Assembly (NCBI GenBank): GCA_965216755.1
Contig: CBDCGL010000011.1
Location: forward strand, 1,298,609-1,362,608
Direction: 5' to 3'
Origin: Alphaproteobacteria bacterium
GTDB taxonomy: Bacteria; Pseudomonadota; Alphaproteobacteria; UBA7887
Length of the DNA: 64,000 bases
The translations under genes and the position numbers were made by a program. This document shows positions 46,085 through 63,685 of the stretch, in pieces (within the stretch, counting starts at the first letter, position 1; every line of letters starts with the position of its first letter). The notes under the pieces are model-generated. The model had not been told where the DNA came from, searched no databases, and worked only from the letters and a program-made list of their open reading frames with translations.

Positions 46085-47101
46085 TTACGTGTAAAGCCGC
46101 TCGCCTCTTATACCCTCATATAGATGGGCGACCTGATCCGCGTATCCGTTGAAGAGCAATGTTGGTATTTTCTCTTTCGACCCCAACCGCTTCTCAGTCC
46201 GTTGACTCCAACGCGGGTGGCGGACTTTAGGATTGACGTTCGCCCAAAAGCCATACTCGTTCGGTTGGACGTCCTCCCAAAACGTCTGCGGCCTGTCTTC
46301 CACCAGCGTGAATCGCGTGATGGACTTGATGTGCTTAAAGCCATATTTCCAAGGCACCGCGAGACGCAACGGCGCCCCATTCTGTTCCGGCAAAGGCTTG
46401 CCATAGGCGCCGACAACGACGAAGGCGAGTTCATTGGTCGCCTCGTCAATAGTCAAAGCCTCCGTATACGGCCACGGATACCACGCCTGGCGTTGGCCAG
46501 GCGCGATATCGCTGTCGAAGAAGCTTTCCATGCGAAGAAACTTGGCGTCGCTCAAAGGGCGCGCCATGGCGATCAGCTCGCTAAGCGGAAATCCGCTCCA
46601 GGGCACCACCATCGACCAGGCTTCGACACAACGATGCCGATATACCCGCTCCTCGAGCGGCATTCTGTGAACCAAATCATCGAATGAAATCGAGATCGGT
46701 TTTTCGACCAATCCGTCGATGGTGACATCCCAGGGGCTGGTCTGAAGGTTGACGGCCGTTTTCCATATGTTCTTGTGCGAGCCGAACTCGAGAAAATTGT
46801 TGTACCGAGTCACCAACTTTTTCTCCGTGATCGAGTCGTCAGCCACGTACGCGGCATTGCGCATGACCGGGAGAAGCTCGGCAACCGAGCGTGCCCCCGC
46901 GGTCGATATTTCCGGTGCATCCGGCGCTGCCGATTGTTCGCCTTCGTCGCCCGTATCACACGCGGCGATAAGTCCCGTTACCGACACCATCGTGGAGGCT
47001 ATCGCCAACCCGCGCAGAAACTTACGGCGTTCCCGGAATGTATGCTCGGGAGTCACGGCGCTCTCGTCGATCGCCCATCCGGGCCGCACACGCACCAGCA
47101 T
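46085..47101 (-). CDS. msrP: protein-methionine-sulfoxide reductase catalytic subunit MsrP (YedY; sulfite-oxidase-fold Mo enzyme)
   Basis: 338 aa. Tat signal RRKFLRGLAIASTMVSV. The Mo-domain region around the VYRHRCVEAWSMVVPW motif is characteristic of MsrP/YedY. Confidence 0.85.
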   Translation of the reverse strand: MLVRVRPGWAIDESAVTPEHTFRERRKFLRGLAIASTMVSVTGLIAACDTGDEGEQSAAPDAPEISTAGARSVAELLPVMRNAAYVADDSITEKKLVTRYNNFLEFGSHKNIWKTAVNLQTSPWDVTIDGLVEKPISISFDDLVHRMPLEERVYRHRCVEAWSMVVPWSGFPLSELIAMARPLSDAKFLRMESFFDSDIAPGQRQAWYPWPYTEALTIDEATNELAFVVVGAYGKPLPEQNGAPLRLAVPWKYGFKHIKSITRFTLVEDRPQTFWEDVQPNEYGFWANVNPKVRHPRWSQRTEKRLGSKEKIPTLLFNGYADQVAHLYEGIRGERLYT

Positions 47102-47235: not shown

Positions 47236-47658
47236 CTATTGTGAGGCAAGTGGATAAAGTATCAACGCGCCATTTGGCGCGATCCAATACCACCCGTGAG
47301 CGCCCGCATGGATCTCAGTTGGTTCACCCGCCTCGGCCATACCAAAGAAACCCGGCACGTTCGGGACCATCGGCATAGCCGGCATACCCACCATGCCGAC
47401 CATCCCCGCTTGCGGCATGGTCGGCCCCGACGGATACAGGGCCAACTGACCCGTGGTCAGGATTCGATACCATCCCGTTGACCCCAGGACACCCCCAGCA
47501 GTGTAGCCGCGCGTCGCAGGATCCAAGCTCGATTGGCTTGCCGCAACCGTCCCCCCTGCGACCATCAAGAAAAGACACGCCAAAACTAGGCCACCGTAAG
47601 CCTTTAGCTTGTAGCTACCGCACCTGTCCGGTGCCACCCTCGTGCCCAGCGTGTTCAC
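47236..47658 (-). CDS. small secreted protein with duplicated G[WF][YF]..P.G.L.LYP motif
   Basis: 140 aa. Signal-like LVLACLFLMVAGGTVAA. Two copies of the motif (GWYRILTTGQLALYP, GWYWIAPNGALILYP) flank a short Met/Pro-rich segment (GMVGMVGMPAMPMVP). Confidence 0.6.
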   Translation of the reverse strand: MNTLGTRVAPDRCGSYKLKAYGGLVLACLFLMVAGGTVAASQSSLDPATRGYTAGGVLGSTGWYRILTTGQLALYPSGPTMPQAGMVGMVGMPAMPMVPNVPGFFGMAEAGEPTEIHAGAHGWYWIAPNGALILYPLASQ

Positions 47659-49016
47659 GTCGAACCCGACGACTCCTCATGCAAACCATATTTTCGGATC
47701 AGACGGTACGTGTTTCGCTCACTTATTCCAAGTGTGGCCGCAACTTTTACCCTATGACCCGAGTATTTTTCCAAGAGATGCTTCAGATAATCTTGCTCTA
47801 TTTCTTTCAAGCTCGGTTCGTGATCAAATGACAAGACCAACTCCTCGGCCTTCGGCGACTGCTCGGTCGACAGAACGACATGCTCTTCATGAATGGTCGG
47901 ATGTGCACCGGACAGAATTATCGCGCGCTCCACTACATTCTTCAGCTCTCGCACGTTACCCGGCCAATCATATGCCATCATTCTTTTCATGGCGCGCCGC
48001 GATACGCGCTTGTCAATCCGTCTTGAAAAATCGTGATTGCTAATGAAATGATTAACCAAGTCTTCAATGTCCTCTCGACGTTCACGCAATGGCGGTACCG
48101 TTATGACAAAGGCACTGAGTCGATAAAACAAATCTGAACGAAACCGGCCGTCCCGACTGAACTTCTCTAGATTGGCATTTGTCGCGGCAACAATTCGAAC
48201 ATGCGCTGTCAGGTCCTTTGTGCCGCCGACGCGCCGGAATTGACCGGATTCAAGAACGCGCAGCAACTTTGCCTGGATGGACGAAGTGATTTCGCCGATC
48301 TCATCGAGAAAGAGCGTGCCGCCTTCGGCCCCCTCGATTAACCCTTTCTTCTGTCGATCAGCACCGGTAAAGGACCCACGCTCATGGCCGAAAAGTTCCG
48401 ATTCGAACAACGTTTCCTGTAAGGTACAGCAGTCCAACGCGACAAAATTGCGATTTAGTCGCGCGCTGCGTTCGTGGATTTCGTGGGCGACAAGCTCCTT
48501 GCCGACACCGCTTTCGCCTTGGATCAAAACGGTCATATCCGACGGCGCCACAGCATCGATCAGACGATTGACCTGCTCCACCGCCGTGCTGTTGCCGACC
48601 AAAAAAGTTCGCCGACTGGTGCGCAACCGATCTTCAACAAACTGCAAATTGCGGCGCAGCGCGGCATTCTCCAAGACTCGGTCGACAACGACTTCCAATT
48701 CTTCCAAGTTGACGGGCTTGGAGAGATAGTCGGCAACGCCCAACTGCATGGCCTTCACGGCTTTCTGCACAGACGCATATGCCGTTAATATGATGACCGG
48801 TTGCTGCGCGACGAGATCCGAAAGGAATTCGTACCCGTCAGCATCAGGTAGTCGTGGATCAAGAACGATCAGGTGTGGCTCGTACGCTGTCAGATAGTTT
48901 TCCGCAGCCGCCCAACAATCGACGCCCTCGGTTGCATAGCCGACTTGGTTGAGTTGCTTGACAAGCAAACTATTCAGAACTTGATCGTCCTCAATGATCA
49001 ATATGTTCGGCTTCAA
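47655..49016 (-). CDS. sigma-54-dependent response regulator (NtrC/Fis family)
   Basis: GGGAG RBS then TTG start at LKPNILIIEDD. Receiver domain, AAA+ sigma-54 activator domain (GESGVGKE, GAFTGA-like ESELFGHERGSFTGA), C-terminal HTH. Confidence 0.85.
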   Translation of the reverse strand: MKPNILIIEDDQVLNSLLVKQLNQVGYATEGVDCWAAAENYLTAYEPHLIVLDPRLPDADGYEFLSDLVAQQPVIILTAYASVQKAVKAMQLGVADYLSKPVNLEELEVVVDRVLENAALRRNLQFVEDRLRTSRRTFLVGNSTAVEQVNRLIDAVAPSDMTVLIQGESGVGKELVAHEIHERSARLNRNFVALDCCTLQETLFESELFGHERGSFTGADRQKKGLIEGAEGGTLFLDEIGEITSSIQAKLLRVLESGQFRRVGGTKDLTAHVRIVAATNANLEKFSRDGRFRSDLFYRLSAFVITVPPLRERREDIEDLVNHFISNHDFSRRIDKRVSRRAMKRMMAYDWPGNVRELKNVVERAIILSGAHPTIHEEHVVLSTEQSPKAEELVLSFDHEPSLKEIEQDYLKHLLEKYSGHRVKVAATLGISERNTYRLIRKYGLHEESSGST

Positions 49017-50979
49017 CGCAGGCTCCCTGATCGACAACTGCCTGATATCCGGCGCGCGGCAACCGAATCTCAAATAGGGTTCCGACGCCGACACCACTCC
49101 TTACCTCGATCGTGCCCCCGTAGCGCTCGATGATAGCTTTGGCAATCGAAAGGCCCAATCCGGTCCCTTTTTCACCATCTGCCCGGCGGCTGAAAAATGG
49201 ATCATAAATGTGAGGAAGGTCTCCAGGCTGGATCCCACAGCCCGTATCCTCGAATATGATTTCTACGTTGTCTTGCGTCTCCGAAGTCGCGATTCTGAGT
49301 TCGTCGCCCGGCGACATGGCGTGAAACGCGTTTTGCACAAAATTCAGGACAATCATTCGAATCTCGCTGTCGCTGCACAGTACGCGCGGTTGCCGCGGAT
49401 CCAGATCAAGCTCTATGCGATGTTCATGCGACTTGGATTCAAACGACAATAGAGACACGGTGTCGCTGATCGCACGGTTGACATCGACCAGTTCCGGGGA
49501 CCTGCTTGGTGGTGCGCTCAACTTCATCAAGCGCTCTGTCACTTCGATGCATTTATCGATCTCAGTATCGACAGTACTCAGATACTGACCTATGTCATCA
49601 AGGGACTTATCTTCCCGCCCCGTTGCTCGGAGCGCCGCTTGCAGCGCCAACCTGATAGAGCTCAGCGGATTGTGGATTTCGTGCGCGACACCCGTGGCGA
49701 GTTGGTCCAATTCCTTCAACTTCTGCTCTTGGGAAATTTGCATCTCGTTTGATAGGTCGCGAATGGACTCAACGACCAGCGTCTTCGGCCGTCCCTCTTC
49801 TTCCAACATAAGTGGTGCGGCGTAAACCTGCACCCGCGACAGGGACCCGTCGTTTAGAACATGCTGGTGGATCGTCTTTACGGGTTTCCCTGTGCGCGCG
49901 ATTTCAGTCAACGGACAAATGACCAATCCAGCCGGACAGGGGCTTTCGCGGCGATGACTTGACTCATAGCAGGGTATGCCGACCACGTCGGTCATATGAA
50001 CGCCAAGATGGCGACAATAGGCCGAATTCGCCGTGACGATCGCGTGGTCCGAATCGATCACACGCAATGGATCTGGATTTGCTTCCAACAATGCTTGCAG
50101 AAATTGCCCTCGCCTTTGCGATTCCCGGATACTTGTCGCCAGATTGTGTGCCATTTCGTTGAAACGGTTTTCAAGCTCGGCCATTTCGTCACGCCCACGT
50201 ACGGCGACTCGGCTATCAAGCTGTCCCGAAGACAGTTTGCGCGTCGCCGTCGCCAACTGGCGAACTGGGCGAACCACGTTGTTGCGGACAAACCACCATC
50301 CAGCACCAACCGTCAACAACACCACGAGCGCGCCCGAACCGGTTAACATAAAGGCCAGCATACGGGCATCCCGACGCACCGGCGCGGCGTCATAGTCGAC
50401 AAAGATGACACCATTGACCGGATGCGCTTCGACCGAACCATGACACCCGATACAAGCAGGGCGGTTCCGGATCGGGTTCACGCTGCGCAACACCTCCCGT
50501 CCCTGCGCATCAACAGTAAAAACACTGCGCGGCCGGGACGCCGTCTCCGATGCGTGACACCCGGCGCAGGCAGGATCGGTGCCGCGGTCAAACCGTATTC
50601 CGACACGATCTCCTGACGATGCAAACCTCACTTCACCCGCCGGGTTCACAATCATGACGCCGCTAATCCCCTGCTGCTGACCGAGGCGTACGACAATATC
50701 CCGCAATCCACTCAGGTCTCTTTTCAGCATCGCATTCTCTAGCGATGCTTGGAGCAAGCGATTGATCTGTGTTGAGGCCTCCGTGCGTTCGCGCTCCAGT
50801 TGCGCGCGATACATGCCGACAAACAGCACTAAGAAAATAAGCGACGCGGCAACCAGACCAATCGTCATAATGACGGTAAATCTACGATCTAGTCGCGATA
50901 TCAACGGCGTGACCCTCAGCCAGAAACCCCTTTTGACAATGTCACAAATCGGACATTTCAATTGGGCCCAAAAAAGCAC
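48991..50979 (-). CDS. sensor histidine kinase with periplasmic di-haem (2x CXXCH) sensor domain
   Basis: TM helix, then periplasmic domain with CAGCH and CIGCH. HAMP, PAS-like, HisKA (HEIHNPLSSI) and HATPase_c domains follow. GTG start at 50979 or ATG at 50868. Confidence 0.8.
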   Translation of the reverse strand: MLFWAQLKCPICDIVKRGFWLRVTPLISRLDRRFTVIMTIGLVAASLIFLVLFVGMYRAQLERERTEASTQINRLLQASLENAMLKRDLSGLRDIVVRLGQQQGISGVMIVNPAGEVRFASSGDRVGIRFDRGTDPACAGCHASETASRPRSVFTVDAQGREVLRSVNPIRNRPACIGCHGSVEAHPVNGVIFVDYDAAPVRRDARMLAFMLTGSGALVVLLTVGAGWWFVRNNVVRPVRQLATATRKLSSGQLDSRVAVRGRDEMAELENRFNEMAHNLATSIRESQRRGQFLQALLEANPDPLRVIDSDHAIVTANSAYCRHLGVHMTDVVGIPCYESSHRRESPCPAGLVICPLTEIARTGKPVKTIHQHVLNDGSLSRVQVYAAPLMLEEEGRPKTLVVESIRDLSNEMQISQEQKLKELDQLATGVAHEIHNPLSSIRLALQAALRATGREDKSLDDIGQYLSTVDTEIDKCIEVTERLMKLSAPPSRSPELVDVNRAISDTVSLLSFESKSHEHRIELDLDPRQPRVLCSDSEIRMIVLNFVQNAFHAMSPGDELRIATSETQDNVEIIFEDTGCGIQPGDLPHIYDPFFSRRADGEKGTGLGLSIAKAIIERYGGTIEVRSGVGVGTLFEIRLPRAGYQAVVDQGACVEAEHIDH

Positions 50980-51039: not shown

Positions 51040-52113
51040 TTATGCCAAGACTTGAAAGAGATTGAGCTTTCGTCCGGTTTCACGACATACCCAACACGTC
51101 GCGGACTCAAGAGCCTGGTCGCCCGGCATGTGAAACGGCGTACCACAGCGCGCACAGACCTGGCGCCGCAACGGCAATTGAAGCTGCGTGGGCGCGATGT
51201 CGGTCCCGATCGATATGGCGTGCTGTCTGCAAACATCCACACACAGCATACACCCACTGCATCGGTTCGCCTTCAGCCCATAGTGCGTATTGTCACCGTC
51301 ACGCCGCAGAGTGATCGCGCCATGTGCGCACAAGCGCACGCAGGCGTCACAGCCCGAGCACCGTTCGCTGTCGATCTCCGGGACAAAGGGAAGTAGAGCC
51401 GTATCGCCATCCGCGAACAGAGGTGGCCTGTGCTTTGGCCGTGGCGCCTCGTCCGCGACCGTCTGTCGCTCGACGCGATCGATAAGTGTACTAACCATAC
51501 CCTTCAGGAGCGAACGACGGCCGAGCCCGTTGTCGCGCCGGCGCACTTCGGCGCCGTCACGCGCCGCCCGCCACTTGCCGACGGGCAGCAAGCGAATGGC
51601 CAAAGCCGGCTGGTCCCGCGCCGACAAATACTGGTTCACGGTATCAACGACAGACTCAAGGCGCATACACGCCCCCCGCCGGCATGTGTCACATGGTGCC
51701 TCGGCGACCCACAACGTATAGATTCCGCGGTCGTGAAGTTGGAACAAAGCACGCATCGAAATTGCATGGACACATGGCACGACGCCTGCGCCGTCGTCGC
51801 TTGTCGCAGTATCGCAGGCGACGAACGCGACGCCTTGCCCGCGCACATCACGCATTGTTGTGGCAAATTTGGCCTCGATCGCGGATTCTGGGCATACTGC
51901 CGCGCACAGGCCGCAGCCGTCGCAACGGCCGACGTCGATCATCAAGCCATCATCGCACAACGACAAAGCGCCTTCGGGGCAGGCCTTGACACAGGCGGTG
52001 CATGTCGCATCGACCGTACGCCCGTGGACGCATAAGTTGCCATCAATCTCGGGACATTGATCGTGCGCCGCATCCCTCGGCGAATCCGCCATTTCCAATC
52101 GACCAATCACCAA
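51040..52113 (-). CDS. multi-cluster 4Fe-4S ferredoxin-type protein
   Basis: 357 aa. Several CxxCxxCxxxCP motifs (CTACVKACPE, CDGCGLCAAVCPE, CSGCDACVRLC, CSGCMLCVDVC). Confidence 0.7.
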   Translation of the reverse strand: MVIGRLEMADSPRDAAHDQCPEIDGNLCVHGRTVDATCTACVKACPEGALSLCDDGLMIDVGRCDGCGLCAAVCPESAIEAKFATTMRDVRGQGVAFVACDTATSDDGAGVVPCVHAISMRALFQLHDRGIYTLWVAEAPCDTCRRGACMRLESVVDTVNQYLSARDQPALAIRLLPVGKWRAARDGAEVRRRDNGLGRRSLLKGMVSTLIDRVERQTVADEAPRPKHRPPLFADGDTALLPFVPEIDSERCSGCDACVRLCAHGAITLRRDGDNTHYGLKANRCSGCMLCVDVCRQHAISIGTDIAPTQLQLPLRRQVCARCGTPFHMPGDQALESATCWVCRETGRKLNLFQVLA

Positions 52114-52880
52114 CTCGGCGCGGTGCCAGGTAGATAAGTTGGGCCCAATTCGCCGCAGTCTTTTGAAAATCTCTTGTTGGCGCGTAGCTGCTCGTAGTTG
52201 GGCTTGGGCTGATCAAGTGCAAGTGCGAACAATTCACGTGCGCGATGAAGATAGGCTGCAGTCGTTCCCGCCAAACCCGCGTAGAAAGGCATTTCGCACC
52301 GCGCCATGACGCGCTCCGCGAAAGCGTCGATCCAGAGCAGGAGGTGCTGATCCAAAAACGCTGCCGCGTCTCTCACCGCCTGCAAATCGCGTCCATCCGT
52401 CAGCAACCGGCCAACAAACTGCAGTTGCAAAACCAGGTGATCATCCGCGCGACTTGCCCAGTCTTGAACACAAACACCGTGGCGCCGGTACCAAGCCCGC
52501 ACTTCAAACATCGGTTGCTGACGTTCCAATCCATCTTCGTCCAGCCACACCGATTCGTAAGGGGACGCGCGGTAGCCATGCGTCAAATAGATTTCGCCAT
52601 ATTCGACCGCGAGCCGATCCAGTACGTCATCACCAGGTGTATCTGGCAACGCCGCCACCGCCTGATCGAATATATCGAGTGCGGCGCGTCCCGCCGCCGT
52701 CTCCAGTCGAAGACCCAGGCTTTGGGCAAGCCCTTCTTCACGCAGCGCTGCTAGGGTCTTCGCCTCTGGCTCCTTGTCATGAAGCATGGCCAAGAGCTTG
52801 AGATCCGCGGCCACACTCGTCCGCAGTTGGTCGAGCAAATCACGACCCCCGGGCATCTCGGACGCCACGGCCGATGCCAT
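52107..52880 (-). CDS. TorD/DmsD-family redox-enzyme maturation chaperone
   Basis: Family-like motif pattern (PDDHL.LQLQF..L, ESVWLDEDGL). ATG at 52880 sits 1 nt after the DmsB-like stop. Confidence 0.6.
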   Translation of the reverse strand: MASAVASEMPGGRDLLDQLRTSVAADLKLLAMLHDKEPEAKTLAALREEGLAQSLGLRLETAAGRAALDIFDQAVAALPDTPGDDVLDRLAVEYGEIYLTHGYRASPYESVWLDEDGLERQQPMFEVRAWYRRHGVCVQDWASRADDHLVLQLQFVGRLLTDGRDLQAVRDAAAFLDQHLLLWIDAFAERVMARCEMPFYAGLAGTTAAYLHRARELFALALDQPKPNYEQLRANKRFSKDCGELGPTYLPGTAPSW

Positions 52881-52881
52881 T

Positions 52882-53553
52882 TCAGCCGGCATCGACGCGG
52901 CCTTTGCTGTGCGCCACAAAAGCAATCGACGGTCTGGTTAACGCTGGATCCGCCAAATTCTTGACTTGCTGCGTCACTTTGTCCGCCGGACCCAACGCCT
53001 TAGTCTCATAGCCACCCGCTACGATCTGGTCAATCGGCCCAACATCCAGCACGCGCATCATGCAAGCCATGACGCAATAGGGTTTTCGACCCGCATCAAT
53101 TTCGTCGACGCACATATTGCATTTCTTGACCAGGTTATCTTCCGGATCAAATTGCGGTGCACCATAGGGGCATGCGGCCTCGCATCGCCGACACCCAATG
53201 CACAGCGTCGAGTCGATATCAACGATGCCATCTTTCTTGCGCTTGAATATGGCCCCGGTCGGACATGTCGGCAAACATGCCGGTTCTGCGCAATGGTTGC
53301 ATGACATATTAACCTTGTACGCATAAACGTCCGGGAACTGGCCGCCTTCGATGTATTGCACTCGGCGAAATCGAGGCCCTGGGCCAAGACCATTCTTGTC
53401 TTTACAAGCAATTTCGCACGCGCGGCACCCGATACAATCAACGTTGTGATGCACGAATCCGAGTTGCGTATCGGGCACGACCGGCTTGTAAACTTCGCGC
53501 TTGCGCCTCTTGACTGCTTCTTTGACCCGTGCCTTATCGATCTGGTTCGTCAT
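52882..53553 (-). CDS. DMSO-reductase-family iron-sulfur subunit (DmsB-like, 4x [4Fe-4S])
   Basis: 223 aa with four ferredoxin Cys clusters (CIGCRACEIAC, CNHCAEPACLPTCP, CIGCRRCEAACP, CNMCVDEID...CVMAC). Confidence 0.85.
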   Translation of the reverse strand: MTNQIDKARVKEAVKRRKREVYKPVVPDTQLGFVHHNVDCIGCRACEIACKDKNGLGPGPRFRRVQYIEGGQFPDVYAYKVNMSCNHCAEPACLPTCPTGAIFKRKKDGIVDIDSTLCIGCRRCEAACPYGAPQFDPEDNLVKKCNMCVDEIDAGRKPYCVMACMMRVLDVGPIDQIVAGGYETKALGPADKVTQQVKNLADPALTRPSIAFVAHSKGRVDAG

Positions 53554-53576: not shown

Positions 53577-56117
53577 TTAGTTGTCACGCCGGAAAACGTG
53601 GCCACGTGCCGTGGCAAGCTTGTCCCATCCGGGCCTGTGGGTGAGCTCTGTCTTGGACATGTTGACCAGAATCGTATTGTACGCGAACGCGCCCGCCGGA
53701 CTCGGTTCGTCGGCTGTCAAGAAGTCCGGATTGCCCGAGCGGTCGACCCCTGTTTCATCGAGATCCATCCAGGCCCCTTCGTGCAGAACGACGACGCCGG
53801 GCATGCACCTTTCGGTCACATAGGCCGGCACAACCGTGGCACCACGATCGTTCCAAACATAGACGGCGTCACCAGTCTTGATACCCAACCCCTCGGCGTC
53901 TTTCGTGTTGATCGTCACCTCTTGCTCGTAGGTCTCGCGCAACCAAGGAATGTTGTTGAAGATCGAATGGGTGCGCCACCGGGGATGCGGCGTGATCATG
54001 TGGAACGGATACTTCTCCGCTTTCGGGTGATTGAGCGACTCCCACGGCTCAATCCATTTCGGGATGTAAGGGATCGGCGCGCCAAACTGCGTCTTCTTCC
54101 AATCCGTGACCGACGCCAACTGTGTCGAGAAAATCTCAACCTTTCCTGACGGAGTCGAGAACGGTTGACCTTTCTCGACTTGATCCCGGAACGCAACGTG
54201 TGGTTCGTCGAGCTCAAATTTGTAGACCCCACGTTTCTTGAACTCATCCCACGATATCTCGACGTGGTGGTGATGCCGTACTTTGGTCTCCCACCACTCA
54301 CTGAGATACGCTTCGTCGACAGCGTCGTCATTGTAGAAATAGTCGCGCGTGGCCTTCGGATTGAAGACGTTTCCAAATCCCAATCGGAAGCCGAGCTCGG
54401 TGAAGATCTGCAAGTCGCTTTTGCTTTCCCCCAACGGCTCAATGACTTTCGGCCGATGAATGTAGTAATGCCCCTTGTACCAAGGTAGGGCCACGTCGTG
54501 CCGTTCGAAATGCGTGGCTACCGGTAGTAACACGTCGGCCCAAATCCCGGACGGGGTTATCGTGGAGTCTTGGCAAACCACGAGATCAAGCTTCTTTATG
54601 GCTTCGATCTCTTTGTTGATATTCGTCAACTGATTGAACCAATCGGATGCCTGCCACCAAATTGCACGGATATTCGGAATCACGCCGTCCATTGGCCCAG
54701 GTTTTGGCCACAATCCAACATCCTCGCGCCGCACATACGGGTAGTTCAACACACAATGCGCCCACCGATCGGACTTAATCGCAGCCGCGTGCACGTTAGC
54801 ATATTGATCGTATGGGCCGGCGACGCTTTCCATATGCCAGCCCTTGCCGACACCTTCACTCGAACCGCCCAAAACACCGATGTTCCCGGTTTGCGCTTGC
54901 AGCGCCGCGGCCATACGGCTGTATTGTTCCCCATAGGCGGCGCGCCCGGGCGCCCAAGACGCCTTGAGCGCGGCTGGCTTGGTTGTGCCATACATTTCGG
55001 CCAATTTCTTGATGTCCGCGGCGGACACACCGCAAATGGGTTCGGCCCACTCCGGTGTTTTTGGTTGACCATCATAACGGCCATAAATGTAGTCGCGGAA
55101 GTTCTCCATATTGGCCGCCCAGGGCGGCATGGTGCCCTGATCCATTCCCAAGCAGAATCTATCGATGAAATCTTGATCCTGCCAATTATTCTCAAAAATG
55201 TGGAAGGCCATGGCGGCAAGCATCGCCGCGTCTGTGTTCGGCTTGATCGGAATCCACCATGCGTCGTAGGCGGCTGCCGAGTCCGTGTACTGAGGATCGA
55301 CGACGACAAATTTGCAGCCGCGTTGCTTCGCCAGCCGCATATAGTAGAACGTATTGCCGCCATGAAATGTGTAAGCCGGATTCCAGCCCCACATAATGAT
55401 CAATTTGGAATGAGCGAACGCGTCATCCTCGTTGCCGTCTTCGATTGTTCCGAACGTCTGTAGTGAACTAAATGTTGTACCTTGATAGGATGGCACGGAC
55501 CATGACACGGTGCGGCAGCCAAATATGCCGAGGAACCGACCCAGAGACCCTTCGATCTGATCCGACTTGTGCAGGGCACCCCAAGACGCACCCGCATAGG
55601 ACTGATCGAGAATGGCCGTCGGGCCGTATGTATTCTTCAGGTGCAACATGCGCTCGGCGAGATAGTCAAGGGTATAGTCCCAAGACGCGCGTTTGAACTT
55701 GCCCTCACCACGTGCGCCGACCCGGATCATTGGGTAAAGCAACCGTTCCGGCGAATAAATACGCGATCGATACGATCGGCCACGCAAGCAAGCCCGCACT
55801 TGCGGCACCGCTTCCGTGTCAGTGTTAAACGCATCGCCTTGATAGGTTCCGTCGTCCGTCGACAAGCGAACGATCACATTGCCCTTTTTGTGCGCAACCA
55901 GCATATGGCGCGAACCACAGTTGTGTGCGCAGCTGGTGACAACCGTGGTGAGCTCATCATCCGTGTAATAGGGCTCATAAGCGAACGCGTCAGCCTGTTG
56001 GCTCTGTGCGGTGCTCACCAAGCCGGCCGTCGCGCCGGCGGCGGCCGATTGCAGAAAGCCCCGCCGCGAAACATTGAACGCTGATCTCAATTCATCCAGG
56101 CGATTTTGTTTAGTCAT
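53577..56117 (-). CDS. molybdopterin oxidoreductase catalytic subunit (DMSO reductase family, DmsA-like), Tat signal
   Basis: 846 aa. Tat signal SRRGFLQSAAAGATAGLVSTAQS. N-terminal Cys cluster for [4Fe-4S] (CAHNCGSRH...), bis-MGD domains, C-terminal molybdopterin dinucleotide-binding domain. Confidence 0.85.
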   Translation of the reverse strand: MTKQNRLDELRSAFNVSRRGFLQSAAAGATAGLVSTAQSQQADAFAYEPYYTDDELTTVVTSCAHNCGSRHMLVAHKKGNVIVRLSTDDGTYQGDAFNTDTEAVPQVRACLRGRSYRSRIYSPERLLYPMIRVGARGEGKFKRASWDYTLDYLAERMLHLKNTYGPTAILDQSYAGASWGALHKSDQIEGSLGRFLGIFGCRTVSWSVPSYQGTTFSSLQTFGTIEDGNEDDAFAHSKLIIMWGWNPAYTFHGGNTFYYMRLAKQRGCKFVVVDPQYTDSAAAYDAWWIPIKPNTDAAMLAAMAFHIFENNWQDQDFIDRFCLGMDQGTMPPWAANMENFRDYIYGRYDGQPKTPEWAEPICGVSAADIKKLAEMYGTTKPAALKASWAPGRAAYGEQYSRMAAALQAQTGNIGVLGGSSEGVGKGWHMESVAGPYDQYANVHAAAIKSDRWAHCVLNYPYVRREDVGLWPKPGPMDGVIPNIRAIWWQASDWFNQLTNINKEIEAIKKLDLVVCQDSTITPSGIWADVLLPVATHFERHDVALPWYKGHYYIHRPKVIEPLGESKSDLQIFTELGFRLGFGNVFNPKATRDYFYNDDAVDEAYLSEWWETKVRHHHHVEISWDEFKKRGVYKFELDEPHVAFRDQVEKGQPFSTPSGKVEIFSTQLASVTDWKKTQFGAPIPYIPKWIEPWESLNHPKAEKYPFHMITPHPRWRTHSIFNNIPWLRETYEQEVTINTKDAEGLGIKTGDAVYVWNDRGATVVPAYVTERCMPGVVVLHEGAWMDLDETGVDRSGNPDFLTADEPSPAGAFAYNTILVNMSKTELTHRPGWDKLATARGHVFRRDN

Positions 56118-56187: not shown

Positions 56188-56988
56188 TCACTGCGCGTTG
56201 ATGCGAAAGCGTGACGCCGACTCGGTCGGGCGATCGACCGCCCATTCCGGCGTTTCTTCCGGCATGTCCGGCCAAGGATGTCGCGGGTATGGATACGATG
56301 TCGCGTACCACGCACGGCCACCATGACAGCCGTAGCAAACATCTGAGCTCTCTCTTGCCAGTTCTTCTATGGCATCTGCCTTGAGGTAGTTGACGTTGTG
56401 CCGAACCGTACGGAACAGTTCCTCATGACACAGCTGGCATCCATTGGGTGTCGCCTCATCCTCCAGATCAACACGAACTTCTGGCCAAGGCCCCTCGACG
56501 CCGAGCATCAGTTCGTTTGGAAAACGCCCATGACACAACAAGCACGTTTCTTGAGGGACCACCGACTTACGTAAACTAAATCCAGCGTCAGCGGCGGTCG
56601 GTGGTATGGGTGCTTCTTCACGGGGATCGTGACCCAGGTGGCAGGTGTTGCATTGCAAATCCATAACCTGCGTCGCGTATGGGGTTATCAAATGCCTCCG
56701 ATGAAAAGTTTCTTGATCTCCCTGATATGTATCCAATGTCTGATACCACGCCGTTGATTCCACAGCTTCAACGCCTGCCGGCGACTCGCTTAGAACGCGG
56801 CGGTCGATAATTTCCTGGTGACAGGACAAACATTGATCGTTCGTTGCTGACTCGATTGCCGGCCGGAAATGAATTGGATCCCAGATGGCGCTCTCATAGT
56901 CGATCTCCGCGGCACTAGCACCGGACGCCGCCCACAACCCGACATACATGGCAGTCAACGGCCGCACGATGGCCATCACCTTATTCAT
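56188..56988 (-). CDS. pentaheme c-type cytochrome
   Basis: 266 aa. Signal peptide and five CXXCH motifs (CLSCH, CNTCH, CLLCH, CQLCH, CYGCH). Confidence 0.75.
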   Translation of the reverse strand: MNKVMAIVRPLTAMYVGLWAASGASAAEIDYESAIWDPIHFRPAIESATNDQCLSCHQEIIDRRVLSESPAGVEAVESTAWYQTLDTYQGDQETFHRRHLITPYATQVMDLQCNTCHLGHDPREEAPIPPTAADAGFSLRKSVVPQETCLLCHGRFPNELMLGVEGPWPEVRVDLEDEATPNGCQLCHEELFRTVRHNVNYLKADAIEELARESSDVCYGCHGGRAWYATSYPYPRHPWPDMPEETPEWAVDRPTESASRFRINAQ

Positions 56989-57359
56989 TGTTGCCCCACC
57001 ACTTGTTGCGTCGCCCCACTCATGGAGGCCGTTTCTTCATTGGATATCTCGCTGTGGCTCTGGTGCCATCCACGAATGTCGTACGGTCCGGTCATGCCTG
57101 GACGTGTAAAAGGCGTGAACCAGGCCCCCTGATCTTCGAGAAAACGGAGACTATAGGGATAAGGACTGTCGACGCCTGTGAGGGCGTGGTCATACCAAGC
57201 CCCATTCTTTTCCAACTCATGGACCACCGGCGCGTCTGCCGGCCGCTGATCTGGCTTGGTTCCAGCGACTGAAAGAGTTGTTTGGCTGGCTTGCGCGCCT
57301 ACATGTCCGAGACTGGCCAGAACGACACCCGCCAGCGGCACAAGTTTCCACAGTGTCAT
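56985..57359 (-). CDS. hypothetical secreted protein
   Basis: Start placed at MTLWKLVPLAGVVLASLGHVGAQA (signal peptide). Stop overlaps the cytochrome start (ATGA). Contains two GAW[YF] segments. Confidence 0.45.
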   Translation of the reverse strand: MTLWKLVPLAGVVLASLGHVGAQASQTTLSVAGTKPDQRPADAPVVHELEKNGAWYDHALTGVDSPYPYSLRFLEDQGAWFTPFTRPGMTGPYDIRGWHQSHSEISNEETASMSGATQQVVGQQ

Positions 57360-57474: not shown

Positions 57475-57933
57475 CTAGTTTGTCACGTCGGAGTTATCCT
57501 GATCCACATTGCTCGGTCCCGCCATCGGTTGTGTGGCAGTCGGTGCCTGGCCATGCATCCACGGCATGGAGCGCGGTCCTTGTTGGCCAAATAACAAGCC
57601 CGCCGGTGCGTAAAGCAGCAGCCCACCATCTGGCGCGACCCGAAAGAACCCGCGGGAATTGACCAGATTTGTGCTGCCGAACATGCCCAGGATCGTGTAC
57701 ATCACCTCAGGCGGCACGACTTGGCTCACAGGATAAAGGACGATCCCCCCATTTGGCATAAACTGAAAGAAGCCATGGGCGTCCACCAACGAACCAACGG
57801 CGATCGGCTGATCTGGATTAGCCGGCACAAGCGACTGACCATCTTGCGCGAGAACTTGCATCGGTTTGGCCGCCATGAATGCTGTCATGAGCAAGACGAC
57901 GCCAAAACTTGTCACACGCCTAATTACAATCAT
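57475..57933 (-). CDS. small secreted protein with duplicated G[WF][YF]..P.G.L.LYP motif (paralogue of 47236..47658)
   Basis: 152 aa. Signal peptide VVLLMTAFMAAKPMQVLA. Motif copies GFFQFMPNGGIVLYP and GFFRVAPDGGLLLYAP. Met/Pro-rich tail (MPWMHGQAPTATQPMAGP). Confidence 0.6.
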   Translation of the reverse strand: MIVIRRVTSFGVVLLMTAFMAAKPMQVLAQDGQSLVPANPDQPIAVGSLVDAHGFFQFMPNGGIVLYPVSQVVPPEVMYTILGMFGSTNLVNSRGFFRVAPDGGLLLYAPAGLLFGQQGPRSMPWMHGQAPTATQPMAGPSNVDQDNSDVTN

Positions 57934-58082: not shown

Positions 58083-59480
58083 TTAGCGCGGCGGTTCCCA
58101 GTTGCGGGCTGCCATACCTGGCATACCTTGCATGCCCCACATGCCGGGCATACCCTGCATGCCCCACATTCCGGGCATACCCTGCATGCCCCACATTCCG
58201 GGCATACCCTGCATGCCCCACATTCCGGGCATGCCCTGCATACCCCACATTCCGGGGTAGCTGGCGTACATCCCCCACATGCCGGGGTTCATCCCCCACA
58301 TACCAGGCATACCTTGCATGCCCCACATACCGGGCATGCCGTACATGCCGCCCATGCCCCACATGCCAGGGTTCATGCCCCACATACCGGGCATACCTTG
58401 CATGCCCCACATACCGGGCATGCCGTACATACCGCGCATGCCCCACATGCCAGGCATTCCGTACATGCCGCCCATACCGGGCATGCCGTACATGCCGCCC
58501 ATGCCCCACATGCCAGGCATTCCGTACATGCCGCCCATACCGGGCATGCCGTACATGCCGCCCATGCCCCACATGCCGGGGTTCATCCCCCACATGCCGC
58601 GCATGCCATACATGCCGGGCATTCCGTACATGCCACCCATGCCGCGCATGCCCCACATGCCGGGCATTCCGTACATGCCGCCCATGCCGGGATAGTTCGC
58701 GTACATGCCATACATACCGCCCATACCGGGCATTCCGTACATACCGCCCATGCCCCACATGCCGGGGTTCATCCCCCACATGCCGCGCATGCCATACATG
58801 CCGGGCATTCCGTACATGCCACCCATGCCGCGCATGCCCCACATGCCGGGCATTCCGTACATGCCGCCCATGCCGGGATAGTTCGCGTACATGCCATACA
58901 TACCGCCCATACCGGGCATTCCGTACATACCGCCCATGCCGGGCATGCCGTACATGCCGCCCATACCGGGCATGCCGTACATGCCGCCCATACCGGGCAT
59001 TCCGTACATGCCGCCCATGCCCCACATGCCGGGGTTCATCCCCCACATGCCGCGCATGCCATACATGCCGGGCGTTCCGTACATGCCGCCCATGCCGGGA
59101 TAGTTCGCGTACATGCCGCCCATGCCCCACATGCCGGGGTTCATCCCCCACATGCCGCCCATGCCGGGATAGTTCGCGTACATGCCGCCCATGCCCCACA
59201 TGCCGGGATTCATCCCCCACATGCCGCGCATGCCATACATGCCGCCCATGCCCCACATGCCGGGGTTCATCCCCCACATGCCGCGCATGCCATACATGCC
59301 GGGCATTCCGTACATGCCACCCATGCCGGGATAGTTCGCGTACATGCCGGGCATGCCTTGCATGCTCCACATGCCGGGATACATCCCCTGCATACCTTGG
59401 CCGGCGGATGGCTGTGACATCATTAGCATCGCGCCAATGACCATCGCCGTACCGGCCACTCTCCTTAGCTGCTTCAACAT
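58083..59480 (-). CDS. secreted methionine-rich G-M-X tripeptide-repeat protein 1
   Basis: GAGGAAGG RBS 8 nt upstream of ATG 59480. Signal peptide [27 protein letters not shown]. About 440 aa of ([22 protein letters not shown]...) repeats with interspersed YANYPG. Same strand as the whole cluster. Confidence 0.7.
58110..59410. repeat. coding tandem repeat: 9-nt/27-nt units with 186-nt higher-order near-perfect copies
   Basis: For example, the stretch beginning cccatgccccacatgccgggg at 58561 recurs at 58747. No stop codons in any of six frames, so all frames give long artefactual ORFs. Confidence 0.85.
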
Positions 59481-59805
59481 TTAACGAACCTTCCTCATAA
59501 CAATTGTTCGGTCGGCTTAGACTTCACTCAATCCTCGAATCCCAGTTGCAAGTGCCGCCGTTCAAGGTCCGACACCGACAAATCTCGATCTTGGACCGGC
59601 GTTGCGGACAGAACATCAGCTATGCATCGTTGTTCCGTGAACCCTATCCATTTGTTCGCACTGCAACCTTTCGCCGTTTTATTGACGGCATTGAATAAAA
59701 AGATCTGTGGCTTACGCCCCGTTCTTGAGGGAACGGCCCAGTTGCTCTGTCAGAATTCCCAAGCCATGGTGGGCGCTCTGTTGCGCCCACCATGCTGCAG
59801 TCGAC

Positions 59806-60843
59806 TTAGCCGTCTTTATCGTCGTCGGACTCACCCGACATGCCTTCCATGCCGGACATACCTTCCATGCCGGTCATGCCGGACATACCGCTCATGCCGG
59901 ACATACCTTCCATGCCGGACATACCGCCCATGCCGGACATACCTTCCATGCCGGACATGCCTTCCATGCCGGTCATGCCTTCCATGCCGGTCATTCCGGG
60001 CATCCCCGTCATACCCATTCCAGGCATGCCGTACATTCCGCCCATGCCGGGCTGTAACGCAGCCAAGTTTGCCGGATAGAGCGTGATGACGTTACCAGGG
60101 CCAACGGTGAAGTAGCCGGCGAAGACCGCGCCACCACTCATGCCTTGCATGCCGCCCATACCGGGCATGCCTTGCATGCCGCCCATACCGGGCATGCCTT
60201 GCATTCCCCACATACCGGGCATGCCTTGCATACCCCACATACCGGGCATGCCTTGCATACCCCACATGCCGGGCATGCCTTGCATTCCCCACATGCCGGG
60301 CATGCCTTGCATTCCCCACATACCGGGCATGCCTTGCATTCCCCACATGCCGGGCGTGCCTTGCATTCCCCACATGCCGGGCATGCCTTGCATTCCCCAC
60401 ATGCCGGGATAGTTGGCATACCGTTGGCCTTGCATGCCCCACATGCCGGGGTTCATCCCCCACATGCCGGGCATACCTTGCATACCCCACATACCGGGAT
60501 AGTTCGAATACTGTTGACCTTGCATGCCCCACATGCCGGGGTTCATCCCCCACATGCCGGGCATACCTTGCATACCCCACATGCCGGGCATACCTTGCAT
60601 ACCCCACATACCGGGCATACCTTGCATACCCCACATACCGGGCATGCCTTGCATACCCCACATGCCGGGATAGTTCGAATACTGCTGACCTTGCATGCCC
60701 CACATACCGGGCATACCTTGCATACCCCATTGATTGGGCATAGTTTGCTGGCTATGTGCCGTGCTTGTCGCGCTCAGTGACGCCATCGCAACAACGGCAA
60801 CGAGGCCAACAACCCTCCCAATCTTTTTTAGCGTACTAATCAT
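59806..60843 (-). CDS. secreted methionine-rich G-M-X tripeptide-repeat protein 2 with central LYP motif and acidic GM[EST] C-terminal repeats
   Basis: Signal peptide MISTLKKIGRVVGLVAVVAMASLSATSTAHS. About 200 aa of almost uniform GMWGMQGMP repeats. Then GGAVFAGYFTVGPGNVITLYPANLAALQPG. Then [25 protein letters not shown]... ending GESDDDKDG. Confidence 0.7.
   Translation of the reverse strand: MISTLKKIGRVVGLVAVVAMASLSATSTAHSQQTMPNQWGMQGMPGMWGMQGQQYSNYPGMWGMQGMPGMWGMQGMPGMWGMQGMPGMWGMQGMPGMWGMNPGMWGMQGQQYSNYPGMWGMQGMPGMWGMNPGMWGMQGQRYANYPGMWGMQGMPGMWGMQGTPGMWGMQGMPGMWGMQGMPGMWGMQGMPGMWGMQGMPGMWGMQGMPGMWGMQGMPGMGGMQGMPGMGGMQGMSGGAVFAGYFTVGPGNVITLYPANLAALQPGMGGMYGMPGMGMTGMPGMTGMEGMTGMEGMSGMEGMSGMGGMSGMEGMSGMSGMSGMTGMEGMSGMEGMSGESDDDKDG
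59830..60740. repeat. coding tandem repeat (27-nt unit catgccgggcatgccttgcattccccac and variants)
   Basis: Many consecutive perfect 27-mers at about 60140..60420. Open in all six frames. Confidence 0.85.
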
Positions 60844-61109
60844 TCGTACCTCTATGTCGCCGTCTCCCGTGGAGACAGCGGTCCTTTAATGTGCTGACCG
60901 AGAAAAGACGCCGCAGCACCCGGGATGAACATTTCCTAGGTACTGTGGCTCGAATTCCCACCTAACTGCTTGCCTTCCCGTTGACGCCGCTGATTGCGGC
61001 GCCGGCTTTTTAATAAGCAGATTTCGTGCCAGCCTTAGCGTGCAAGCGTAAGTATTTGAAATTTTGTATGAATTCGACTTCGGCCACGTTCAAGGGCCTG
61101 TCTCTAACC

Positions 61110-62542: not shown

Positions 62543-63685
62543 ATGATGGGTCAAGCATCGACCGGGCAATCAGTCGCGCGCTCAAGAGCGGGTTGTTTTC
62601 ATACGCTGAATCCGTTGCGGCGGCGCGTTGCTTGTTGCGCTGTGATTGCGGTAAGTCTGGCGCGATCGGCTCTGGCACAAGACCCAGTCCCCGTGGAAGT
62701 CGTGGTCCCCCAACAGATCGAACGTGCGGCAACATTACGTCTCACCGGTACGTTAACAGCCGCGCGACATGCTTCCCTTTCCGCGCGGGAAGGCGGTTTG
62801 GTGACGGCCGTTATGGTCGATGCCGGCGATCGCGCGACCCACGGTGAGCCGTTGGTGCGCTTGGATGCTTCTCTGGTGGAGATCGAGCTTCGACGCGCCG
62901 AAGCGGCCCTTGATGAAGCATTGACGCGTCTCGCCGAAGCGCAACGCCTCCGCGACGAAGCCCATGCCCTCGGCGCCAACATTCCGCAAAGCACGCTGCG
63001 CACCCGCGAGGCACAGGTCGCCATCGAGCAAGCGGCCCTGGCGCGACTTGACGCGGAGAAACAACGCCAGGAAGAACTCGTCGCGCGCCATGAAGTTTTG
63101 GCGCCGTTTGATGGCGTCGTGAGCCGCAAACGGACCGAAGTTGGAGAATGGGTGACACCCGGCGAACCGGTTCTGGATTTCGTGGCCACCGATCAGTTGC
63201 GGCTCGATGTGCAGGTCCCGCAGGACCACTTCGCCGGGATACTCGTCGGCGGGTCGGTACGGGTGCGGCTGGATGCTTTCCCTGAAAAGCATTTTGTCGG
63301 ATCGGTCGCAGCGAAAGTGCCGGTCGGCGATGCCTCGTCGCGAACGTTCCTGGTTCGCGTGGTCCTGGACAATCCTTCCGGCGAGATCAGTGCCGGTATG
63401 TCGGGCGAGGTCGCCTTTGACACGCAACACAGCGCCGGCGGCTTGGTTCTGCCCCGCGATACCTTGAAGAGGTATCCTGATGGAACAACAACCGTATGGA
63501 TCGTGCGCGATGCAAGTGATGGGCTGAGCGCATATGAACGCGAGATCCAAATCGGTCCGCGCATTGGCGCAACGATCGAAGTGTTGGATGGACTGGACGC
63601 GGACGTTCGGGTCGTGGTGCGCGGGAACGAAACGCTGAGCGAGGGCGTGGCAGTGCGGATCGTCGACACGACCACGATGCGCTAG
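62543..63685 (+). CDS. efflux RND transporter periplasmic adaptor subunit
   Basis: Signal/TM, coiled-coil hairpin (EIELRRAEAALDEALTRLAEAQRL...), beta-barrel and MP domains. Start uncertain: ATG 62543 or TTG 62615. Confidence 0.8.
   Translation: MMGQASTGQSVARSRAGCFHTLNPLRRRVACCAVIAVSLARSALAQDPVPVEVVVPQQIERAATLRLTGTLTAARHASLSAREGGLVTAVMVDAGDRATHGEPLVRLDASLVEIELRRAEAALDEALTRLAEAQRLRDEAHALGANIPQSTLRTREAQVAIEQAALARLDAEKQRQEELVARHEVLAPFDGVVSRKRTEVGEWVTPGEPVLDFVATDQLRLDVQVPQDHFAGILVGGSVRVRLDAFPEKHFVGSVAAKVPVGDASSRTFLVRVVLDNPSGEISAGMSGEVAFDTQHSAGGLVLPRDTLKRYPDGTTTVWIVRDASDGLSAYEREIQIGPRIGATIEVLDGLDADVRVVVRGNETLSEGVAVRIVDTTTMR

Follow-up and report, generated by a model that had tools for sequence, protein, structure and literature searches.

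The window analysed here is a stretch of 64,000 nucleotides from an alphaproteobacterial assembly (GCA_965216755.1, contig CBDCGL010000011.1, forward-strand positions 1,298,609 to 1,362,608). Two tandem genes on its minus strand encode exported proteins, P1 and P2, that are built of Gly-Met-X repeats (GM proteins). We found that such genes head a widespread and apparently undescribed operon for a molybdenum sulfoxide-type reductase. Judging from sequence, we consider the chances somewhat better than even that the GM proteins are a high-capacity, regenerable methionine sink, re-reduced by this dedicated DmsAB-type reductase and by MsrP, a periplasmic reductase of protein-bound methionine sulfoxide (MetO). 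The original prediction, made from the letters of the window, had overlooked the operon and singled out MsrP, which lies 11 kb away; the constant partner of the GM genes is the DmsA-like enzyme.

P2 and P1 are the first genes of a long minus-strand cluster that reaches down to msrP (Table 1). The original prediction had described two minus-strand poly(Gly-Met-X) open reading frames (ORFs) with signal peptides, and both were found exactly where it had placed them. Its several hundred methionines per protein proved an overestimate, the actual counts being 136 in P1 and 83 in P2. Methionine makes up 24-29% of these two signal-peptide-bearing proteins: the composition of P1 is 33.5% Gly, 29.2% Met, 9.2% Pro, 8.0% Tyr and 6.2% Trp, and that of P2 is 28.1% Gly, 24.1% Met, 8.1% Gln, 7.5% Pro and 5.5% Trp. 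Charged residues account for less than 4% of P1, and His is absent from P1 and occurs once in P2. The N-terminus of P1 resembles a Sec (general secretory) signal, as does that of P2 (MISTLKKIGRVVGLVAVVAMASLSATSTAHS), and export is predicted for both. The ribosome-binding site noted earlier was located as the Shine-Dalgarno sequence GAGGAAGG, 8 nt 5' of the P1 ATG; GAGG stands 5' of the P2 ATG.

Mature P1 can be read as 130 units that begin with Gly-Met, chiefly GMW (27), GMP (24), GMY (23) and GMG (22), with GMQ (8), GMR (8), GMNP (8) and GMYANYP (5) as rarer forms, and the protein ends in NWEPPR, a tail of the W-x-P-P type. Mature P2 comprises 80 such units. Its signal peptide is followed by GMW/GMQ/GMP repeats, a central hairpin motif (GYFTVGPGNVITLYP) and an acidic tail of GME/GMS/GMT units reading GMEGMSGMTGM...GESDDDKDG; the LYP-type motif and tail that had been described for this protein are both present. 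Interruptions of the repeats include GQQYSNYP. When the proteins were read as Gly-X-Y triplets, the longest unbroken run was 23 triplets in P1 and 31 in P2, with about 13 and 8 separate runs, respectively, split by GMNP or GMYANYP inserts. Position X was Met in 114 of 115 P1 triplets and in 72 of 76 P2 triplets, and position Y of P1 included 23 Trp and 26 Tyr. M-X(1-2)-M-X(1-2)-M arrays are present, the entire mature sequence being (G-M-X)n. The claim that this architecture falls outside described families was borne out, as Pfam and NCBIfam hold no curated family for P1 or P2 and returned composition-driven collagen or adhesin matches only.

An assembly artefact was considered and rejected. 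The DNA repeats of P1 and P2 are imperfect (62-95% matches), and the Gly codon before each Met varies synonymously, with GGC/GGT/GGA/GGG used 83/24/14/9 times in P1 and 40/28/9/3 times in P2, next to an invariant ATG. The GM frame with its signal peptide also recurs 5' of the orthologous enzyme in 74 of the 83 loci described below, complete long-read chromosomes included. We therefore regard the coding frame as real. Long-read data or an interrupted minus-strand frame had been named as ways to expose an artefact; orthologues are found on long-read chromosomes, and the frame is open. Other frames of the repeat are open too (HARHV..., HAPHAGH...), but they were rejected, since they have neither a signal peptide nor conserved motifs and, as frames, show no conservation.

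By exact look-up, P1, P2 and the long form of P4 (an exported protein encoded downstream) were not in a collection of 15 billion proteins in which neighbours from the same contig were present, and the look-up returned no contig for P3, a further member of the family, or for the protein P0066. Runs of N, either gaps or masking, lie inside the GM ORFs of three related assemblies (L030:7832-8369, L070:8188-8918 and L077:872-1761). Given both the missing entries and these runs, we regard GM genes as systematically under-called or mis-assembled.

Conservation was assessed by running the DmsA-like protein as query against a set with a single genome for each species, which gave 599 pattern matches, at least 594 of them confirmed relatives. 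These span the Alpha-, Beta- and Gammaproteobacteria, and the closest among the matches listed belong to Hyphomicrobiaceae and other alphaproteobacterial metagenome-assembled genomes (MAGs), at 80% identity. Gene order was compared at 83 loci, namely the best 80 of the at least 594 enzyme relatives (74-80% identity to the query) and three found through GM-protein matches. The best 80 come from Hyphomicrobiales, Rhodobacterales, Rhodospirillales, Rhodocyclaceae/Azonexus, Competibacteraceae, Sedimenticola, Candidatus Thiodiazotropha and Arenicellales. Cultivable bacteria with such a locus include Zhengella mangrovi X9-2-2 (L035), Ruixingdingia sedimenti LG-4 (L044) and Thermopetrobacter sp. TC1 (L070).

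In 72 of the 83 loci, the cytochrome and enzyme genes are immediately preceded by a GM-rich ORF with a signal peptide. Eight of the other 11 are truncated upstream, two (L030 and L070) have gaps inside the GM ORF, and only L053 truly lacks a GM gene; with the two gapped loci included, the count is 74. The converse search gave the same association, as the proteins P0007, P0014 and P0004, found by similarity to P2 alone, each precede the same cassette. Its other members are a DmsB-like subunit (82 loci), a pentaheme cytochrome (81), a TorD-like chaperone (77), a histidine kinase (64), a sigma-54 response regulator (63), P4 (56) and a polyferredoxin (52). Of the 52 loci with enough upstream sequence, 35 have sigma-54-type sites 5' of the GM or P4 genes, and such sites are nearly absent elsewhere in those loci. 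When all ORFs of the loci were clustered, few other families recurred: a thioredoxin-NHL protein (12 gammaproteobacterial loci), a monoheme cytochrome (11), an ABC-type ATPase (6), MsrA (6) and two proteins of no assigned family (12-13 loci each).

In full-text literature searches, neither Gly-Met-X repeat proteins nor the cassette turned up in any paper, and a 2026 review of bacterial sulfoxide reductases names MsrAB, MsrP, DmsABC, DorA, MtsZ and BisC and leaves the cassette unmentioned.

Three findings deserve separate mention. The thioredoxin-like, NHL-repeat protein, which is exported and about 515 aa long, is encoded 3' of the cassette at L013:14673-16220 and in 11 further gammaproteobacterial loci (Sedimenticola, Thiodiazotropha), and could be a thiol-based redox partner. 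A Hyphomicrobium MAG contig (CBDCUQ010000003.1) carries two complete cassettes about 16 kb apart (L006 and L034), whose GM proteins differ in composition. At the divergent locus L081:8001-12987, the gene for P0007 (hairpin, GM linker, hairpin) precedes those for a molybdoenzyme of 72% identity and a monoheme cytochrome c; a DmsB-like subunit and a pentaheme cytochrome were not detected there.

Across all loci, the residue after Gly-Met varies by lineage (S > G >> Y > P > Q/R/N), and the Trp/Tyr/Pro/Gln-rich flavour of the window proteins is common mainly to Hyphomicrobiaceae relatives. Because this third residue changes from lineage to lineage, what is conserved is methionine content and not sequence. 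Three features do not vary: the proteins are exported, Gly-Met recurs every three residues, and Met accounts for about 12-34% of each ORF. Several short motifs recur around the repeats. The aromatic hairpin motif, GYF[KQ]ITPQGQIFFYP, occurs twice per protein in gammaproteobacteria and is the same motif as that in P2, P3, the small exported protein u140, P0007 and P0008. A GW[VT]CTQWT[YF] motif is found in 30 GM proteins and a C-terminal W-x-P-P in 20, P1 included; Lys-rich tails also recur, and P0002 and P0004 combine a PepSY-like domain with a GM repeat. P1, P2, P3 and u140 are predicted to be exported and largely disordered, and their function probably lies in the thioethers of their methionines.

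The repeat is not confined to the operon. GM(S/G/Q/E) linkers or tails were seen in monoheme cytochromes c, NapC/NirT tetraheme cytochromes and LysM-domain proteins, and GM stretches in Nitrospira CusB adaptors, one CusF-domain protein and one OmpA-domain protein (linker or tail proteins P0003, P0005, P0012, P0021, P0034, P0006, P0032, P0061 and P0001). Since such stretches occur in other periplasmic proteins, the GM repeat can be viewed as a reusable module. Giant-virus and OmpA-fused GM-like proteins (P0043, P0001) were set aside, their gene contexts being unrelated.

The catalytic subunit encoded with the GM proteins has the domains expected of the molybdopterin family (PF00384, 5e-42; PF01568, 7e-22) and a twin-arginine translocation (Tat) signal above the TIGR01409 cut-off. 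It matched the DmsA/YnfE model TIGR02166 at 607.1 bits, under the cut-off of 777.7, and the YnfE and DmsA exception models at about 440 bits against cut-offs of 1600-1675; by these scores it forms a clade distinct from the curated DmsA/YnfE subfamily. Because the score falls below the family cut-off, no substrate can be assigned from it. The closest solved structure is the dimethyl sulfoxide (DMSO) reductase DorA (E 1.5e-70), and TorA is also among the closest. A Ser in the sequence VPSYQG aligns with the DorA molybdenum ligand Ser147, and Tyr114 is kept. The nearest relatives are thus S- and N-oxide reductases (DmsA/YnfE, DorA, TorA), and with the Ser147 and Tyr114 positions retained, sulfoxide-reductase chemistry would fit. 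Members of the type III DMSO reductase family reduce free and protein-bound MetO, and for MetO residues of unfolded proteins DorA reaches about 45,000 M-1 s-1, about equal to the classical methionine sulfoxide reductases (Msr enzymes; PMC7402097).

The N-terminal iron-sulfur motif of the enzyme, CAHNCGSRH (window 55900..55940, residues 62-71), has the form C-X3-C-X3-His; 77 of 80 relatives share it, and the Fe4S4 model of Pfam matches below threshold (19.3 vs 22.7 bits). In E. coli DmsA, a third Cys occupies the corresponding position. The motif could hold an unusual His-ligated or altered FS0 cluster.

In part of the loci, Msr enzymes are encoded nearby. MsrP had been reported in the same cluster, and the window indeed encodes it with a score well above the family cut-off (Table 1); no msrQ was seen next to it in the list of neighbourhood ORFs. 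In 10 further loci, the cassette has Msr genes as immediate neighbours. In L001 and L005, msrP is the first gene, in line with the GM genes, and in L027 and L037 it is adjacent and divergent; msrA is adjacent in L002, L012 and L028, and msrA with msrB lies immediately 3' of the response regulator in L003, L004 and L016. The carriers are mostly related Alphaproteobacteria, so these adjacency events are not fully independent. A pairing that is independent was found on the metagenomic contig L089 (3161-8867), where genes for an OmpR-type regulator, a histidine kinase, msrP, msrQ and msrB are directly followed by P0013, a membrane-anchored GM-repeat protein with WQPP that is unrelated to the cassette GM proteins. 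In Azospira, hypochlorite oxidises MrpX, an exported protein with 20% Met that acts as a sacrificial target, and periplasmic YedY/MsrP restores it (PMC4436054). The original prediction had offered such a methionine sink with a MetO reductase as one precedent, and it is this one that the gene context favours.

Table 1. Genes and regulatory elements of the GM-protein operon and its flank (positions counted from the first letter of the window).
Feature	Position	Strand	Remarks
CusB/HlyD-type membrane-fusion adaptor gene	62543..63685	plus	two genes 5' of P2, runs toward the window end
Sigma-54-type -24/-12 promoter, TGGCACGAAATCTGCT	61016..61031	minus	173 nt 5' of the P2 start codon
P2, exported GM-repeat protein	59806..60843	minus	345 aa
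Stem-loop	59765..59794	minus	12-bp perfect, G+C-rich stem, no U-tract; directly 3' of the P2 stop
P1, exported GM-repeat protein	58083..59480	minus	465 aa
P3, exported protein	57475..57933	minus	152 aa; two hairpin-motif copies (GFFQFMPNGGIVLYP, GFFRVAPDGGLLLYAP), no long GM repeat
P4, exported protein	56985..57359	minus	124 aa; conserved uncharacterised family
Pentaheme c-type cytochrome, periplasmic	56188..56988	minus	five CXXCH and a signal peptide
DmsA/YnfE-like molybdopterin catalytic subunit, Tat-exported	53577..56117	minus	846 aa
DmsB-like four-cluster iron-sulfur subunit	52882..53553	minus	TIGR02951, 190.5 bits
TorD/DmsD-like Tat proofreading chaperone	52107..52925	minus	PF02613
Polyferredoxin (NapF-like)	51040..52113	minus	Pfam/NCBIfam
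Sensor histidine kinase	48991..50979	minus	periplasmic domain, HAMP, PAS, HisKA, HATPase
Sigma-54-dependent response regulator	47655..49097	minus	ORF as listed
u140, exported protein	47236..47658	minus	140 aa; directly 5' of msrP
MsrP, periplasmic protein-MetO reductase, catalytic subunit	46085..47101	minus	NF003767, 420 bits (cut-off 207)

The promoter upstream of P2 is one of only two -24/-12 matches with at most one mismatch in the window, and no sigma-70-like promoter was found on the minus strand. The stem-loop that follows P2 is possibly an mRNA stabiliser or a partial terminator. The 325-nt spacer between P2 and P1 folds somewhat better than shuffled sequences (z = -2.3), and an Rfam search of positions 45-64 kb, spacer included, found nothing. 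The ORF of the TorD-like chaperone overlaps that of the DmsB-like subunit, and its true start is probably downstream of the overlap. The remaining genes of the window are ordinary chromosomal ones; among their products are proteins of the adenylosuccinate lyase type, a purine-biosynthesis type related to aminoimidazole ribonucleotide (AIR) synthase, hydantoinases and ABC transporters.

P3 and u140 are two further family members in the window that had escaped the original prediction. Pfam and NCBIfam give no family for P3. In u140, a hairpin (GWYRILTTGQLALYP) is followed by a short Met-rich linker (GMVGMVGMPAMPM...) and a second hairpin (GWYWIAPNGALILYP), an architecture that matches P0007 and P0008. 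A word-based homologue search with u140 recovered u140 itself only, and an AlphaFold2 model of low confidence (predicted local distance difference test, pLDDT, 42.6) showed strands at the two hairpin motifs only.

P4 represents a tightly conserved family of exported proteins of about 100 aa. Clustering at 90% identity gives 378 database clusters, every one of which is labelled hypothetical and lacks a Pfam domain. Paracoccus sp. P2, Jhaorihella thermophila and Marimonas arenosa are among the bacteria with homologues. Its consensus reads VAG..P.QRP..AP...W[YF]..AL.G...PYP.SLRFLEDQGAW.TPF..PGMTGPYDIRGWH, and alignment A1 contains 19 invariant residues, the PGMTGPYDIRGWH end included. AlphaFold2, run with a 40-sequence alignment, gave a low-confidence model (pLDDT 68.5; predicted template modelling score, pTM, 0.28). 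P4 may need a partner, for instance the reductase, in order to fold.

Under the sink explanation, the histidine kinase and the sigma-54 response regulator would, on a presumed inducing signal, activate the promoter at 61016..61031, and the GM proteins would be produced in excess because their genes are first in the operon. Hypochlorous acid (HOCl), chloramines, chlorite-derived species and peroxides would then convert the exposed methionines of P2 and P1 (83 + 136) to MetO and so spare essential envelope proteins. The Tat-exported DmsAB-type enzyme would return MetO to Met with electrons delivered through the pentaheme cytochrome c. MsrP, or MsrA/MsrB in other genomes, would re-reduce the same sulfoxides, and we infer that these enzymes assist, for example by covering the other sulfoxide diastereomer. 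As each Met has Gly in front and a small or flexible residue behind, its side chain may be reachable both by oxidants and by a deep molybdenum funnel. The hairpin (...G..LYP), GWxCTQWT and the C-terminal W-x-P-P could serve in docking or assembly. Of the two halves of this explanation, the methionine sink is the better supported, by composition, export and Msr neighbours; the identification of the DmsA-like enzyme as the repair enzyme is less well supported.

Several observations weigh against this explanation. The window GM proteins are rich in Trp and Tyr, for which irreversible damage by HOCl is expected, and (M-X-X)n is likewise an ideal ligand array for Cu(I) and Ag(I). Across lineages, the Gly-X-Y register persists despite non-Met triplets such as GQK and GQQ, which suggests some structural constraint, one left unexplained by a pure sink. 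Msr genes are adjacent in only 11 of the 83 loci, mostly in related Alphaproteobacteria. Only half of the SYGW motif of DorA is kept, the sequence being SYAG here and in all 83 relatives with Trp116 replaced, and SYGW is reportedly required for sulfoxide reduction (PMC7402097). Finally, an enzyme that scores under the DmsA/YnfE cut-off could reduce an oxyanion and generate oxidant instead of repairing its effects.

A further-reaching form of the sink explanation strikes us as a tentative possibility. Here the GM proteins would be a rechargeable periplasmic "methionine battery", a new protein class in which polymer-bound MetO is the physiological substrate of a DmsAB-type enzyme linked to the respiratory chain. 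Each pair of molecules would hold hundreds of two-electron equivalents, buffer bursts of oxidant, and discharge through the pentaheme cytochrome. The periodicity, together with the hairpin, CTQW and W-x-P-P motifs, would order a polyproline-II-like assembly or dock the chains to the enzyme and to P4. In this form, the DMSO reductase family would gain a new physiological role in hundreds of proteobacterial species, lucinid symbionts among them.

The same gene set could be read with the enzyme as the source of the stress: the GM proteins would still be a sink, respiration of an oxyanion or oxide by the DmsA-like enzyme would yield the oxidant, much as chlorite and hypochlorite arise when perchlorate and chlorate are reduced, and Msr enzymes encoded elsewhere would recycle the GM proteins. 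The pentaheme cytochrome, iron-sulfur subunit, TorD-like chaperone and polyferredoxin are a typical respiratory reductase kit, and the pairing of a histidine kinase with a sigma-54 regulator is like that of substrate-induced respiratory operons. In Azospira, MrpX protects during (per)chlorate respiration (PMC4436054), and a "DMSO reductase" is reportedly among the genes with the highest expression in lucinid symbionts (bioRxiv 10.64898/2025.12.05.692423); the Thiodiazotropha genomes carry the cassette (L042, L049, L052), so this expression may belong to it. The adjacency of msrP, msrA or msrB to GM genes is compatible with both readings. We nevertheless consider this one unlikely, as neither chlorite dismutase nor another detoxifying enzyme is a recurrent neighbour in the 83 loci, and the enzyme sits, with its Ser ligand and Tyr114, on the branch of S- and N-oxide reductases, whose usual products (dimethyl sulfide, trimethylamine, Met) are harmless.

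The original prediction had also proposed Cu(I)/Ag(I) binding by Met-rich "Mets" motifs, and here only part of the proposal stood. Chemically, binding is plausible: (M-X-X)n amounts to an unbroken Mets motif, and the affinity of M-X(1-2)-M-X(1-2)-M peptides for Cu(I) is micromolar. The GM proteins, with Trp residues as partners of Met, would then be periplasmic metal sponges in the manner of SilE, CusF, the N-termini of CopB and PcoB or the Met-rich insert of CueO, and the reductase would only keep their thioether ligands reduced. GM-rich stretches do occur within CusB-type adaptors and a CusF-domain protein of other organisms, E. coli MsrP maintains CusF under copper stress (PMC9302797), and the window itself contains a CusB/HlyD-type adaptor gene. 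That gene recurs in one locus only, however, and no copper or silver resistance gene is conserved beside the cassette in the 83 loci. The GM proteins hardly contain His, Asp or Cys, which metal sponges usually have as well, and the regulator is sigma-54 dependent and not of the CusRS/CopRS (OmpR) type. A function as a metal sponge is, on these grounds, quite unlikely.

We regard as highly improbable that the GM proteins form a collagen-like or polyproline-II matrix, periplasmic or at the surface, in which methionine is incidental. The Pfam Collagen model PF01391 does match, at 81.9 and 99.1 bits against a cut-off of 27.2, and the unbroken Gly-X-Y runs of P1 and P2 (23 and 31 triplets) and the register retained elsewhere despite inserted non-Met triplets are in keeping with it; one report describes the Gly-Met tails of GroEL as polyproline-II helices (PMC12571646). 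The Pfam match, however, arises from Gly-X-Y periodicity only, and the adhesin models Lcl, SclA and SclB scored 43-105 bits, far under their cut-offs of 325-500. A full-library HMMER search with P2 gave 10,856 hits, headed by long generic collagen-like (G-x-Q/P) proteins of 35-45% identity without Met, and did not delimit a family. Trp and Tyr are rare in collagen triple helices, but Y is often one of them in the window proteins, and X is nearly always Met. Register breaks are frequent in these proteins, there is no trimerisation domain, and a matrix would leave the invariant link to reductase and Msr genes unexplained. A role as precursors of ribosomally synthesised and post-translationally modified peptides was rejected, a radical S-adenosylmethionine enzyme gene being near one locus only (L081).

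If the sink explanation holds, the principle of a sink with its reductase, so far represented by MrpX and MsrP, would be scaled up and rebuilt around a different molybdoenzyme family. Several hundred species at least would be concerned, from Hyphomicrobiales, Rhodobacterales, Competibacter and Azonexus/Dechloromonas-like bacteria to Sedimenticola and the Thiodiazotropha symbionts of clams. The conserved but unnamed DmsA-like clade and the P4 family would each acquire a testable function. GM proteins with more than 100 Met could serve as natural Cys-free substrates for Msr assays, and their genes are a class that assemblers and gene callers regularly break or overlook.

The operon can be compared with several known systems. 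Bacterial collagen-like proteins such as Scl1/Scl2 and Lcl (PF01391) share Gly at every third residue over 20-30 triplets and some Pro, but the GM proteins have Met at X, many aromatic residues at Y and frequent register breaks, and lack a trimerisation or anchoring domain. The (GGM)n tail of GroEL is likewise a flexible Gly-Met sequence, but it has about 13 residues and is cytoplasmic. The Cu(I)/Ag(I)-binding segments of SilE, CusF, the CusB N-terminus, the CopB/PcoB N-terminus, the CueO insert and Ctr1 are also periplasmic, Met-dense and partly disordered with M-X-X-M spacing. Their Met number in the tens at most, mostly accompanied by His or Asp, and their genes lie in cus, cop or sil operons with OmpR-type regulators, none of which is conserved around the GM genes.

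The enzyme resembles DmsABC/YnfEFGH, DorA, MtsZ and TorA in its molybdopterin, dinucleotide-binding and N-terminal iron-sulfur domains, and shares with the type III S- and N-oxide reductases Tat export, a DmsB-like partner, a TorD-like chaperone, the position of the Ser ligand and Tyr114. Unlike DmsABC, it has no DmsC membrane anchor and is accompanied by a soluble pentaheme cytochrome instead. It departs from DorA and DmsA in having SYAG for SYGW, C-X3-C-X3-H for C-X3-C-X3-C, and a score below the family cut-off. GM proteins are its nearly constant partners and P4 a usual one, which further distinguishes it from the type III enzymes.

Closer in presumed function are Met-rich proteins that are oxidised and repaired. 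Those of Liang et al. (2012) also contain at least 20% Met, and with 32-50 Met they are easily oxidised by hypochlorite and reduced by Msr enzymes; unlike P1 and P2, they have neither a repeat architecture nor a linked reductase operon (PMC3514235). The nearest parallel is MrpX with YedY1Z1 (MsrPQ) of Azospira suillum PS, where an exported Met-rich protein is likewise encoded, and co-regulated, with a periplasmic molybdenum MetO reductase. In the window, msrP follows the small Met-rich u140, and the promoter sites suggest co-regulation. MrpX is small, with 20% Met, 44% charged residues and no Gly-Met-X period (PMC4436054), whereas P1 and P2, with 136 and 83 Met, are almost uncharged and are set apart in composition by their richness in Gly, Trp, Tyr and Pro. 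The constant partner is a DmsAB-type enzyme with a pentaheme cytochrome here and MsrP, of the sulfite oxidase family, there, and control lies with a histidine kinase and a sigma-54 activator instead of SigF/NrsF, where the sigma factor is of the extracytoplasmic function (ECF) class. If our reading is right, the principle of MrpX and MsrP is realised in this operon with an unrelated protein family and a different molybdoenzyme.

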